Assembly (NCBI GenBank): GCA_020137815.1
Contig: CM035351.1
Coordinates: forward strand, 6,820,001-6,884,000
Direction of reading: 5' to 3'
Source: Hormiphora californensis
Lineage: Eukaryota; Animalia; Ctenophora
Length of the DNA stretch: 64,000 nt
In this document: in pieces, positions 6,001 through 57,000 of the stretch
How the letters are laid out: the number at the start of each line of letters is the position of its first letter
Position numbering within the stretch: the stretch's first letter is position 1
Translations under genes and position numbers: made by a program
The notes under the pieces: generated by a model
What the model was told of the DNA's origin: nothing
Databases searched by the model: none
Seen by the model: the letters and a program-made list of their open reading frames with translations, nothing else

Positions 6001-9000
6001 TGTGTTCCTATGCCAGATACGTGACTATTGGGGGAGAGAAAGGGAGTTTAGTAGGTATATCGAGTTTGTCAACATAGCCAGATAGAAGAAAGGAGGTTTA
6101 ATAGCTAGTTATTATTCCTACGCATGGTATGTAACACTCACCCCAAGGGAACCAGATGTATCGCTGGGTGTCTGCAGGTATACATTCAGGGCTCCTAGAC
6201 TATCTCCCATCATGTGATAGTAGAAGTTCAGGTAACAGTAGTAGTAGGAGGAGGTCTTCATCCAGGGTCCTTTCAATACTGCCCTATCTCCCTCAACACG
6301 CGGGTAGGACGCCTCTATGTACATGTAGTAACCTAACGTGGAGGGGGATTGGTTGATTAGGTAGTTAGTAAGAGTTTCAGAGAGGTCAATATTTGACATT
6401 TGACCAAAGAGACCACGGCAGTAATGATAAAACTCACCCCGGTGTGGTCATCCAGTGTGGTCATCCAATTGCATTTGACACACTCACACGTGCCCACTAC
6501 TTACCGGTGGAATTGCCCCTGGTGTGGTCCCGTTTGGGTCCCGTCCATGTACTGGGAGTTCCCCCACTGTTCCACAACCAATCAAAGTCATCAAAGTTCC
6601 TATCATCTTGGAATCCACACATACCGTTATCAAAGGTACACTCGCCAGGGTTCTCGCTCTCCGCTGTACAAAGATAGGGGATCATTGTTGCAGTACCCAA
6701 TATGTTAGTACCAAACAATACACTGTTTAGTCATGAGATGTTTTGCAATAATAAGTGCTTTGTCTATTAGTGTGTTGGTTACTAATGTGTTACTAATGTG
6801 TTACTTACATGGTTTACATCGGACCATCTTGATATCATCAATGGCAATATCTCCCTGGTAATTAGATCCAATTGTAGCAACCATGGTGAACTTGAAGTCC
6901 TCCTGGTATCCAATTGGAATCTTGGCTTGTTTCCAACTATCCCCCTGGTCTCCAGTGAGGGTGAGGAGGTTGCTGGTGGAATACCGTCCCTCCATGTTAA
7001 CTAGGAACATACCCACACCACTACCCGCCATGTGGTACCACAGTTCCAGCTCGCACCGACTACCAGTTATAGGGAACCGGGGTGAGCTAATGGCTGCCTT
7101 GTCTCCTGGTTTCCTAGGATCAGATGCCTCAACATACAGGTAGGTGCCTGCCTTGCCGTGCCATGTAAACTGTAACCTGTCCTGGTCACAACCCTTGTAT
7201 ACCACGACCTTGTTGTTGTCCGCGGGGTTGGGTGAGCCGTTCAGGGGGTGCCAGCACAGTCCCACTGCTCCTCTGTTTGATGCTTCCCTCTGCTGTGAAG
7301 TCCCACTTGGTGTAACTGCTGCCCACAGTTGTCTCCCAGGACTAGTTTAGTAGTTGGAGGAGGGCACGTCTAGACTCGATTCTGGCTGGAATACACAACC
7401 CAGATGTCAGATGTTTCAGGTCTCCCTCGTTGGTCCAACAGAACTGAAGTCTGTCCTCTGTGCAGCCCTGGTAGGTGACAATGGGAGTGCCAGCTGGAGG
7501 GTTCGGGTTCCCCCACAGGGGATGGACACACTTTCCTCCAAAGTGGAGAATCTTCCCGCAGCCCTTGCTCCCTGCAAAAGTGTGATCCTCAGCGGGACCT
7601 GTTCCCCAGGAACTGGTAGCTCCAGAGTATCGGGCCCAATCGAAATCATCGTGCACAGGTTCGTTCTTCCATCCGCACTCTCCCTCCTCAAAGTTGCAGG
7701 TGGCACACCTTCTTTCGTCCGTGTCCAGCCACCACCAATTGTCCCCACAATCGTCATACAGATCGCAAACCCTGTCTTCAGGAACACAGTTAGGTCCGGT
7801 ACAATCGTGGTCCTCCTTCGAGCAGAGACCATCAATCTCACAGTCATCCAACTGAAAAAGGGAGGGGGTGGGGGTAATCATACCAGCGACTCAGCTTAGA
7901 TCACAGTATACAGTTTTAGAGAGGGCCAGACAAGAACAATCTAAGAGACGGGAGATTCTTCAAACTAACCATCACCTAACACTCACCTCGATGTCGTCAA
8001 TGGCAATGTCACCCTCGAAAGATTCTCCCCTGATTCCCTCGAATTCCAGCTTGAAGGGTCCATCATCTACCAGAGGGATGACCATCTCCGTCCAGTCGGC
8101 TGTCCGGGCTGTCGTCAAATTTTGGAGCAGTTGGTATCCGTTTTTGGTTTTCTTCAAGATCTGGTGAGAATAGTGGTGTTAGATAGGATAGAGGAGACAG
8201 AGAGACAGATAACATAGACAGAGATATATAAAAATACAGGGAGGGAAAGGGCAAAAAAGAAAAGAAGATAAGATGAGTTGACGTACGTTTAGTGATCCAA
8301 TGTGGTCTCCCATCATATGATACCAGAACTCCAACTTGCACTGAGTTGCATCATTTCCACCACCATACGTTAACCATCGGCTCTGGGCTACAGCCGTGTC
8401 GCCAGGTTGCCGGGGGTAACTAGTCTCAATGTAATAATACCACCCCTCCGGTGTAAGAGTAGTATGATCTGTCTTCGGGCCGGTATTGTAACTAGGAGTG
8501 GGACCCTGGTGTCGCGTCCAATCGAAATCATCTCGTGCTGCTAGGTTACTGTACCCACAGGTATCCAACTCAAAGTCGCACTCTCCGGGGCCATTGAGGT
8601 GGCCAGGGTCGCAGTCAGTAAACCGTACATCGTCAACAGCCAGCCAGTAGCTCTCAGAGCTATCGTCCCCTACCAGGGACAGGGAAATAGACACCTGTAC
8701 ATTGGTTCCTTCACCCAGTCTAGCTGTTGCAAAGGTCCAGTTACCAGTGGTGTTACCCGTCTTGGAGAGTACAACCTGCAGAGAGGGCTATTAGAACAAC
8801 AAGTAGTAGGGGGTTGTTATCAATGTAGTTGAAGGAAGAGTCGGCGGTATAAAAGATCCAGTTGTGTGCTAGATAATCCATACTACCGAATAGTCAACAC
8901 CCAATACTGAGACTGATAATATTTTCTCTCTTACATTGCTTCCGGCATCGTTCTTCACCGAAATAGCCATGGTACCATTCTCCCCAAGATCCGCTGCATA

Positions 9001-54000: not shown

Positions 54001-57000
54001 CGTTCCGTACATTGAATACCAGAAAGACATGGTGCACCGGGGTGAGGTGTTCTGCATTGTTAGATACAGGACTGCAGTGTCACCTGACTGACGGTGCACG
54101 TTCGGGAGGTAGGCGTACTTTCCTGGAGAGGATGATGTTAGATAACAAAAGTGGGGGGAAAGGAGGAGGACTGGGGAGGTAAGAACGTCAATAATATTAT
54201 ATACACCCATGTGCTAAGATGGGACTATGCAGCTGGGAAAGCATTTAATTGCGACCAATTAACCACCATATATATAATTACCACAGATAGGAATGTCACA
54301 CGTCTGCCAGGTGACCGCGGAGTTGGTTGTATAACACCACGGTCCAGTTTTCTTGTTGTCCGGGTTCCTACAGAAGCTGTGATCTCCAATGCCCTTACTG
54401 GCGTACCCTTCCGGGGTGTATGTGTGGGAGTGGGGTTTCTGGGAGCTCCACCTCTGGCATATCTCCCCGTACATCGTTACACTTTCAGTTCCCCTGTAGT
54501 TACCACCTACAGATCATGTAGTTGTAGCTGATATATCAATCAGGAACCGACCGACACAAGTAAACAACCAATCAGAACTCGTTATTTGATTTTGATTTTT
54601 GATTTTCAACGTTCAAATGAATACCGAAACAATATCATGTACTCAAAAGAACGAGGCAGGCTCACCGAATGAGCGCTTACACCGCTAAAACACTTTAAAT
54701 CAACTAATATTATATAGAAATTAATATTGTCCACTTTTCAGTCCTTCTTATCTATCTTAATCACACTACCTCTCACAATACCCCACTTAACGTGTGGCTC
54801 AGTGTCTTTCTGTCGCTTTAACTCAGCAACAAGTCTCTTTCTTTCACTTCTCTCCTCAACAGTCCTGTCCGGACAAATGTACACATCGTTCATCCCGTCC
54901 ACTTCCCTCAGCATCCCAGACCTTGCCAGAATGGAGCGTGCCATATCTCGGTTGTGTAGTACCACCTTGACAGGCCGCTTCCTCCCGTTCACCTTCTCGC
55001 CTAGCCTCCTACAGCTTACCAATTTGGGCTTCTCATTGGTGTGTTCCAACACATTCAGAACAACATCCTCAGTCTTTTCCTCTCCATCAGACTCCATCAA
55101 CCCGTAGAAAATCAGGTTGCTGGACCTGTCCTCCACACTGGACGCCTTCACCATGGCTGCTTGTAGCTTCCTAGGGGCAAGCGAGGCAGTGCAGCTCTTC
55201 TTTACAACTGCTGCATAGCACTTCAGTTCTTCTTTGACAGAGGAAACTGTGTCCTCAATCTTCTTGCTCTTCTCAGAGAGGAGAGAGCTCTGGAGAGATA
55301 TCACCGTCTCTTGACAAGATAGCAGCGCTTCCTGAGACTTAATAACAGCCTCTTGCATGGAATTGATCTTCCCTGTTACCTCTTCCAGCTTTTTCTCTGT
55401 CTCCTCTAGCTTTTTTGTCTTATCTTTGAACAACTCAGCGTCCACTTCCACAACATATGGCAGGATCACCATATGACAGAACCAGGCATAATTCTGGATC
55501 ATGTTTATCAATTCGGGCTTGTTCTTCGTGTTCAGCCTAGCTGCAGTAACTCTTGATGAATCAAAACTGTTACCGCGGCTCTGGCACGCAGCATCATTTA
55601 GTAGACACTCTACTGCCTTCATCACACTCGCTGAGGGACATGCTTCATCTGTCAGTCCATTACTTTCACACCACTGTGTGAATTCGTTGCTGTGCATCTC
55701 CACCAATGTAGAGTGTGTACAACAATCGCTCGTACAAACGGTGCAGGTCAGGAGCTCAGAAAATCAAACAAAATAGATAAGAAGTAGGAAGTTTAGGTCA
55801 CGTGACTGGTTATCAGCCAATCAGGGACGAGTATTTCCTGATTCGGTTCCTGATATCAATCAGGTCCTGTATTTAGCAACAAAACTGGTCGAATTAGGAA
55901 CTGGTGGAGGTTTGGTTCGACTATACCTCACTGGTGGAGGTTCCTAGATAGCTGATTGAAAAACGATAATTTGGAAAATGATGACGATGGCGCACCCACA
56001 TACCTTGTCCCCACTTTTTACAGTCCTTGTCGGGCACCAGTCCAGGACTAGTGTGTTCACTGGGTGGGCCAGTTTGGTAGTTGCTGAAAATGTCCACACT
56101 ATCCAGGTAGAACTGGAGGTCGTCTCCGGTGGATTGGGTCCAGTCGCAGTAACCACCCCCATCAAAGTTACACCCACCAACTAAGAGGGGAGGGAGGTTC
56201 GTGTAAATGAGTGTAGAGACGAATGTGGAAAGGGAATGAAACACCAAGAGGTGTTTCATTCTGTCTAGTAGAGTTGATAAAATTATGTATCATCTATATC
56301 ATCTATTGATTTGACATCCTTTTTGAGAGATAAGACAAAGTTCATTCCAGTAATAAAATGAATTTTATTTGATCCATAGAGTAAATTTGCAAATTTCACA
56401 TCTTTACGACATATCCAAGAATTAAGTTTAATATTTATGTACATCATATAAGCCAAAAACTAATTGAAATTAGTTGGCGGGAAAGGTGACCCACTTACAC
56501 CTTTTGCTACTGCCGGGTATCACCACGAACTCTCATTCTATCCCTCGGTATCTCAATCTCTCATTTTTCGAGGGTAACTTATTCCTGTTCGTTCTATCCC
56601 TCTCTCTCCTCCCTGTCTACCTGTCCCTCTCTCTCTCTCTTTCTCTCTCTCTCTCTCTCTCTCTCTCTCTCTCTCTCTCTCTCTCTCTCTCTCTCTCTCT
56701 CTCTCTCTCTCTCTCTCTCTCTCTCTCTCTCTCTCTCTCTCTCACTATCACACTCTCTTTCACTGTCTTATTCCATTATATTCACCTCCTATATCCCTGA
56801 TCCCGGCAGCAGGCAAAGGTGTAAGTGGGTCACCTTTCCCGCCAACTAATTTCAATTAGTTTTTGGCTTAATTTAGGTCCCTTTTTGGTTTCTAATCGCA
56901 GCATGACATTATTTCATGATGTAATATTGTCGAAATGATGCGCTATATGAGAAACGAGACGAATTTCTGTGAAAATCGTATTTTAGACGTCATAATGACG

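Follow-up and report, generated by a model that had tools for sequence, protein, structure and literature searches.

Nested domains, in which a loop of the host fold accommodates a module whose termini are close together, are well known. Examples are the FN2 repeats within the catalytic domain of MMP-2 and MMP-9, the TED within the CUB domain of C3, and the cap insertions of HAD enzymes, which reuse fixed insertion points; 'plug-in' and 'in-line' modules are a recognized distinction. Described here is a giant MAM/LDLa mosaic gene of the ctenophore Hormiphora californensis, located on the minus strand of a 64,000-nucleotide stretch of contig CM035351.1 (positions 6,820,001 to 6,884,000; GenBank assembly GCA_020137815.1), referred to below as the window. 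Like the examples above, it carries close-ended modules in a loop of a host fold, but it differs from them in that the single polypeptide it encodes bears four unrelated folds at one loop, distributed over different repeats.

In overall layout the gene resembles the MALRD1/DIET1-like proteins, which possess a signal peptide and a C-terminal membrane anchor. Members from Saccoglossus (XP_077865040.1), Ptychodera (XP_070566390.1) and Octopus (CAI9725294.1) also display a long alternation of MAM and LDLa domains, with a five-residue loop following a DHT motif and, probably, the same phase-1 intron at that loop. They differ in having no domain inside the loop (1,178 pairs of MAM halves, see below), and the window gene, unlike them, also contains Ig, WSC, SUEL, F5/8C and LCCL domains. 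Class 1-1 exon shuffling, the other relevant system, usually lands between domains. Its units, whole-domain exons flanked by phase-1 introns (Patthy; discussed in PMC2926785), have counterparts in two exons of the window gene, those of an eight-cysteine (8-Cys) module and of a kringle designated A; the difference is that the landing intron in this gene lies inside a domain and appears to have been used repeatedly.

Foreign domains within five MAM repeats

The minus strand of the window was modelled, by a script-assisted and hand-curated procedure, as a single spliced animal gene with exons from 63667 to 32. The model comprises 125 exons with AG/GT ends and phases that chain, and it reads 10,365 codons without an in-frame stop, 15 frameshifts being passed as X. 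A predicted 25-codon 1-1 exon at 63196-63122, which forms the start of a SUEL domain, was left out of these counts and would raise the number of exons to 126. Introns have a median length of 147 nucleotides (nt), a compactness that, like the style of the repeats, would be in keeping with comb jellies, and 69 of the 124 are in phase 1. The gene encodes 44 MAM and about 25 LDLa domains, together with Ig, WSC, P-type trefoil, SUEL, F5/8C and LCCL domains; the alternation of MAM with LDLa repeats is that of the MALRD1/DIET1-like proteins. After an N-terminal module cluster, most MAMs are arranged in LDLa-MAM-(short linker or Ig)-MAM units. MAM44 is truncated by the window end, and MAM21, which lacks DHT, was not scorable.

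Five of the 44 MAMs hold a complete foreign domain at one homologous breakpoint, the loop after DHT (Table 1). The inserts are a kringle in MAM1, a pentraxin in MAM3, an 8-Cys module of no known family in MAM4, two kringles in MAM35 and a MytiLec-type beta-trefoil in MAM39. An earlier sequence-only reading had claimed interruption of 5 of about 44 repeats after DHT or EHT, with a return at Gly, and its coordinates and identities match those obtained here to within a few bases. Its further statement that the Ig, LDLa, WSC and trefoil domains are situated between MAMs was borne out by Pfam matches on exons.

Table 1. Features of the window gene. Insert limits run from the DHT exit to the Gly re-entry, and insert lengths are those of the DHT-to-Gly stretch.
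Feature	Position	Strand	Remarks
Giant MAM/LDLa mosaic gene	32..63667	minus	runs past both window ends
MAM1 N-half	56050..56172	minus	ends at EHT; Pfam MAM 1-39
Insert in MAM1	56049-54283	minus	90 residues; kringle, 6 Cys; Pfam Kringle 3.8e-23
MAM1 C-half	53809..54122	minus	Pfam MAM 45-157
MAM3 N-half	52251..52367	minus	Pfam MAM
Insert in MAM3	52250-51244	minus	215 residues; pentraxin; Pfam Pentaxin 9.8e-23 on middle exon
MAM3 C-half	50815..51243	minus	Pfam MAM; one frameshift near 50874
MAM4 N-half	49455..49584	minus	phase-1 donor 4 codons past DHT
Insert in MAM4	49467-49115	minus	69 residues; 8 Cys; no Pfam match at E<=1
8-Cys exon of MAM4 insert	49114..49308	minus	clean phase 1-1 exon
MAM4 C-half	47498..48087	minus	two exons; Pfam MAM
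MAM35 N-half	12501..12639	minus	phase-1 donor 6 codons past DHT
Insert in MAM35	12519-11822	minus	151 residues; two kringles, 2.6e-17 and 9e-19
Kringle A of MAM35	12163..12366	minus	clean phase 1-1 exon
Kringle B of MAM35	11822..12051	minus	joined to MAM Gly without intron
MAM35 C-half	11495..11821	minus	Pfam MAM
MAM39 N-half	7579..7698	minus	Pfam MAM 1-41
Insert in MAM39	7578-7149	minus	142 residues; CGL/MytiLec/Mitsuba beta-trefoil, 7.6e-13 and 3.3e-8
MAM39 C-half	6816..7148	minus	Pfam MAM 38-157
16 phase-1 Gly-codon introns	span 1558..43485	minus	insert-free MAMs; 81-1692 nt
N-terminal end-to-end cluster	60607..63667	minus	MGAT5-C-terminal-like, SUEL lectin, LDLa, F5/8C, LCCL, SUEL, LDLa; Pfam

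The constant breakpoint that the sequence-only reading had proposed to look for was found when matches to the Pfam MAM profile PF00629 were made on single exons, the N- and C-halves meeting at approximately profile position 40-45. The N-halves stop at positions 38-41 in four hosts, with that of MAM3 running to 50, and the C-halves begin at 38-45 in four, with the match of MAM35 over-extending to 13, into the kringle. In all five hosts the halves are complementary, their profile matches spanning the domain from CxFE at the N-terminal end to IAxDD at the C-terminal end. With the insert cut out, the hosts score 114-167 bits against a hidden Markov model (HMM) built from outside sequences; the 38 insert-free repeats have a median of 154 bits (range 45-186) against the same HMM. 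It is apparent that the breakpoints are homologous, the modules complete and the host halves intact. The alternative of two adjacent truncated MAMs was rejected, as the halves complement each other without overlap.

No domain-sized insertion was observed at any other MAM position in the 44 domains. If about eight loops were equally usable, the chance of four independent hits on one loop would be near 0.002, a rough figure. In MAM1, MAM3 and MAM35 the last Cys of the module adjoins the MAM Gly with no linker. G+C contents at third codon positions were 0.59-0.67 for the inserts versus 0.48-0.61 for the hosts, and this measure gave no clear foreign signal. The splicing of MAM1, MAM4 and MAM35 is that of the gene model, resting on AG/GT ends and on phases that chain stop-free.

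The plain loop and its phase-1 intron

In all 38 scorable insert-free repeats the DHT-to-Gly loop is 3-6 residues long, and in 33 of these it has five. The sequence-only reading had noted a phase-1 intron at this position in many such repeats, with 4380/2689 as an example, and this was upheld: the intron lies in the Gly codon after DHT in 16 of the 38 (MAMs 6, 7, 9, 12, 15-18, 20, 23, 24, 31, 33, 40, 42 and 43), the example being placed at 4381/2688. Two others have an intron 2-4 codons upstream of the Gly site, and 20 have none. Overall, the phase-1 Gly intron is common to 18 of the 44 repeats; the next most shared position, in phase 0, is common to five. As a separate observation, the GP..DHT loop of MAM21 (25976-26885) is missing altogether, and a phase-0 intron lies just downstream.

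An AlphaFold model of the intact MAM30, computed from a 40-row alignment of window repeats, had a predicted local distance difference test score (pLDDT) of 93.9 and the beta-sandwich fold, with template modelling (TM) scores of 0.89 to 8YT7 and 0.78 to neuropilin-1 (5L73). In the model DHT occupies residues 38-40 and Gly residue 46, and the loop is predicted to be coil between strands 22-25 and 47-52; it is probably exposed to solvent.

Among the inserts, only the 8-Cys exon (49308-49114) and kringle A (12366-12163) have phase-1 introns on both sides. The MAM1 kringle and kringle B have a phase-1 intron on one side only, and the pentraxin and the beta-trefoil on neither. Of the three Cys-Gly joins, that of MAM1 has an intron whereas those of MAM3 and MAM35 do not, a pattern consistent with precise intron loss.

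Transcript evidence and sequence integrity

The sequence-only reading had called for splice alignment of cDNA. Run X1 was selected by its species label, and its RNA nature is a guess. Four X1 contigs, less than 90% identical and with a depth under 5, fall on 6400-12900. One joins 9262 to 10523; the 189 letters between equal parts of modelled exons, and the contig therefore has the appearance of spliced mRNA from a related sequence. A further one, of 350 nt and 84% identity (7032-7339), bridges the junction between the trefoil and MAM39, one of the ten insert junctions. Of the differences scored in that contig (38, on one side of a frameshift; 40 of the 48 differences were listed), 30 are at third codon positions, 15 per domain. 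That junction is intronless, so the contig speaks for conservation and not for splicing. The nine other junctions have no X1 cover and were counted neither way. The check therefore yielded one divergent contig across one junction.

The frameshifts in the model are clustered in a few short regions (23100-23600, 22700-22740 and 7260-7390) and are mostly single extra bases, from which we infer that they are assembly errors, as in an unpolished long-read assembly. The contig bridging the trefoil and MAM39 lacks two extra bases that break the trefoil in the window.

Identities of the inserts

The three kringles have six Cys each, give full-length matches to the Pfam profile PF00051 (E values of 3.8e-23 to 2.6e-17) and share 40-46% identity. 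The first Cys of the MAM1 kringle lies inside the MAM exon; this kringle has an internal phase-1 intron (56003-54507), and its 3' junction is a phase-1 intron at 54281-54123. The lysine-binding site of kringles consists of Asp-x-Asp plus Arg. Kringle A has Asp-x-Asp without the Arg of plasminogen kringle 4, and the other two lack one Asp.

The pentraxin, of Pfam family PF00354, contains two internal phase-0 introns. In searches of the PDB its N-terminal part matched neuronal pentraxin-1/2 at 3.3e-5, and the N-terminal part plus the middle matched neuronal pentraxin-2. The Ca-site segment is kept, GQEQD reading GQDQD, and calcium binding is predicted. For the 8-Cys module no relative was found in a word-index search of proteins of up to 2,000 residues, and its single-sequence fold (pLDDT 49.7) was too poor for a structure search. 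The beta-trefoil is intronless and broken by four frameshifts. Like the CGL/MytiLec/Mitsuba lectins (PDB 5F8S, 5XG5 and 3WMU), it has a three-fold repeat, of which subdomains 1 and 3 carry His-Pro-x-x-Gly, but it is Cys-rich (8 Cys), is nested in a MAM and has a middle subdomain without His; compared with these lectins, the gene model has no pore-forming domain.

Some observations concern the introns beside these inserts. The internal intron of the MAM1 kringle contains a 341-codon coiled-coil open reading frame (ORF; 55763-54741, minus strand) with no Pfam match above cutoff. An X1 contig skips exactly 1,207 nt, 54585-55791, which makes that segment a likely mobile insertion into an older repeat. 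Upstream of the acceptor of the 8-Cys exon there is a 35-nt tandem copy, use of which would shift the frame (49282-49351). An inverted-repeat element (48219-49103), with 354-nt arms that are 95% complementary, starts about 10 nt past the donor of the same exon and is, by its shape, like a miniature inverted-repeat transposable element (MITE-like).

MAM proteins in other organisms

It was of interest, as the sequence-only reading had suggested, to survey other MAM proteins for inserts at this loop. A search of 1.84 billion representatives yielded an outside sample of 150 MAM-rich proteins, of which 20 were named; these derive from hemichordates, molluscs, echinoderms, lancelets, one jellyfish and one fish. 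In 168 other proteins, no domain was found in the DHT-Gly loop of any of 1,178 pairs of N- and C-halves. The loop has five residues in 867 of these pairs; four loops have 15 or more residues, none of them domain-like. In a looser pass through 186 proteins, 6 of 1,454 loops had an excess of at least 25 residues, and none was a domain. On inspection by eye, the long loops of P0040, P0047, P0079, P0152, P0169, P0181, P0101 and P0145 were put down to retained introns or to artefacts of prediction and not to domains. The rarity so documented applies to the outside sample only, since this consists of predicted proteins that were ranked by MAM content and are not independent.

Length tolerance was assessed in 1,398 full-length outside MAMs. 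The DHT-Gly loop is longer by at least five residues in 6 of 1,342 domains, versus 19-57 of approximately 1,390 for nine other connections; the two neighbouring segments of the strand connection that holds this loop are equally constant (4 and 0 cases). Because the loop so rarely varies in length, length tolerance does not pick out this site, and a floppy loop as the sole cause was rejected. The intron is therefore favoured over loop flexibility as the reason for the site.

Among the outside predicted proteins, sixteen stop shortly past DHT, and nine of these have Gly as the sixth residue followed by non-MAM text. These nine fit read-through at a phase-1 donor, an indirect sign that the phase-1 Gly intron is old and probably present in other animals. 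Presumably one also lies at the matching Gly of the human RPTP-mu MAM.

No orthologue of the window gene was found in word-index searches of proteins of up to 2,000 residues or in the search of representatives, the best long alignments being approximately 32-38% identical. The survey did provide one lead, a cluster of seven ENA records of two sequence types (P0146 and P0173-P0178) with an LDLa-MAM array in which the start of the last MAM runs into a kringle. Their ORFs, of 218-736 residues, appear to be single long exons and end in mid-kringle, so any return to the MAM C-half would lie beyond them. The break is at the same strand connection, about 10 residues earlier; there is no GP..DHT, and identity to the window gene is 36%. 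A metagenome scan with P0173 found five loci with the kringle part only and no MAM. Among the literature matches listed, drawn from a collection with subscription journals mostly outside its scope, none described a domain inserted into a MAM, and the available portions of PMC10084454 and PMC12549020 contain nothing on the subject.

Origin of the nested modules

The explanation favoured here, with a probability of roughly 0.6, is repeated class 1-1 exon shuffling into the phase-1 intron, together with a filter for close termini and later intron loss. Whole-domain exons would have entered an ancient phase-1 intron after DHT by shuffling, in at least four separate events, and most of the flanking introns would then likely have been lost. 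Within the MAM domain there is probably no old phase-1 site other than the DHT-Gly intron, which may thus be the only place there where a 1-1 exon keeps the frame. Since the MAM halves must still close one beta-sandwich, only modules with ends close together would survive there; the kringle, beta-trefoil and pentraxin have such ends. The sequence-only reading had already regarded the intron as a recurrent landing site. In its favour, this is by far the most shared MAM intron, it seems old, and the loop is not length-tolerant; the exon structure bears the proposal out fully for two modules only.

Several points weigh against this explanation. The MAM1 kringle, pentraxin, kringle B and beta-trefoil are not class 1-1 exons, and the MAM1 kringle starts within a MAM exon. 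Of the 5' introns, the two that survive are situated 4 and 6 codons past DHT instead of five, and they split the codon after A, not G. Introns occur at 4 of 10 insert junctions versus 16 of 38 insert-free sites (Fisher p=1.0). Other domain junctions retain introns to a similar degree, with 8 of 25 LDLa ends, after removal of 4 false regex matches from 29, and 15 of 43 MAM ends. The 4 of 10 thus equals the retention expected if all junctions once had an intron, but a match of this kind falls short of proof. Other animals seem to have this intron too, yet none of the 1,178 loops there holds a domain, and its presence alone is therefore not enough. The P-type trefoils also have ends that lie fairly near each other and are nonetheless located between MAMs. 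The repeat tree is poorly supported (1 of 40 branches starred, MAM44 left out), so that the order and number of insertion events do not follow from it. The model requires reading through 15 frameshifts, four of them inside the trefoil, where the His-Pro motif is found in just two of three subdomains, the second being frameshifted and without His. Finally, intronic insertion accounts for less than 10% of animal domain gains, according to PMC2926785. The same article records symmetric phases in 28 of 49 middle domain gains.

The six intronless junctions among the ten are what first commends a rival in which modules entered coding sequence independently of introns, by retrocopying or illegitimate recombination, with structure alone filtering for the loop and the intron coincidental or gained later. 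The beta-trefoil is wholly without introns, and the many one-off MAM intron positions indicate a gene that gains or shifts introns readily. Repeated shuffling into the intron, for its part, needs six intron losses, which are plausible at the background rate. Intron-independent entry is, however, difficult to reconcile with nine more length-tolerant connections that are free of modules, with two inserts that are clean 1-1 exons, and with three Cys-Gly junctions lacking a linker, and we consider it rather unlikely. With a single ancestral insertion, followed by duplication of the cassette-bearing repeat and swapping of the cassette by recombination, no more than one or two de novo entries at the site would be needed. 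Kringles are present in two of the hosts (40-46% identity among the three), and the repeat tree is compatible with a single origin of the five hosts. Nevertheless, the hosts are 31-39% identical, near the mean of 33% for all pairs, none of 200 bootstrap trees grouped the five together (a bootstrap that had not settled), and four unrelated folds still require four entries at the site. This course of events is considered very improbable.

Similarly low odds are given to the view that a split MAM fails to fold back into a single domain, its halves staying loose or pairing with an adjacent repeat, or that the gene is decaying or the locus mis-modelled. The 15 frameshifts, four of them in the trefoil, the lack of a transcript seen across nine of ten junctions and the lack of a solved structure for a split MAM are compatible with it. 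These are opposed by 10,365 codons without an in-frame stop, by breaks that are clustered and mostly single extra bases, by the two breaks absent from an X1 contig and the second contig spliced as modelled (9262-10523), and by host halves that score normally.

A broader version of repeated shuffling into the intron is put forward only tentatively. In it, the post-DHT phase-1 intron would be a reusable in-domain socket, employed independently in more than one animal lineage (the window gene and the P0146 cluster) to build branched mosaic receptors. The 8-Cys exon and kringle A, still flanked by introns and skippable in frame, may be alternatively spliced, which would vary the set of binding modules on a single giant recognition protein.

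Other features of the window

A Cys-rich module is present in two copies (63360-63665 and 44030-44340) that are 32% identical to each other; both are matched weakly by Pfam Glyco_transf_18 in its C-terminal part (E 0.001-0.04). A Pro/Ser-rich ORF of 252 codons (46048-46803, minus strand), without a Pfam match, lies inside an intron that splits a WSC domain. Tandem-duplicated splice acceptors with the exon start were observed at 49282-49351, 47559-47690, 44700-45200 and 15600-15730.

Significance

The architecture is real and unusual, and the kinds of process concerned, domain insertion and 1-1 exon shuffling, are already known. The gene provides a rare natural experiment: in it one domain occurs 44 times, an internal intron is common to many of the copies, and a single loop has taken up four unrelated folds. 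It lets the constraint on landing (intron position and phase) be separated from the constraint on staying (geometry of the termini), and it allows intron loss after shuffling to be dated. Annotation can miss nested architectures of this type, because split MAMs read as fragments. Provided that the fold is borne out, a MAM loop that takes inserts of 70-215 residues would be useful in protein design.

For the ctenophore, the gene product is likely to act outside the cell as a large binding protein bearing numerous heads of lectin type. The mature protein would be a rod built from LDLa-MAM-MAM units, either secreted or bound to the membrane, with the nested modules as side heads, and these are predicted to attach to sugars, to proteins or to Ca-dependent ligands, such as might be found on microbes, on food particles or in matrix. 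We infer that the MAM array serves as a display scaffold, as the sequence-only reading had put it, the predicted protein being a rod with side-branching binding heads and not a simple chain of beads.

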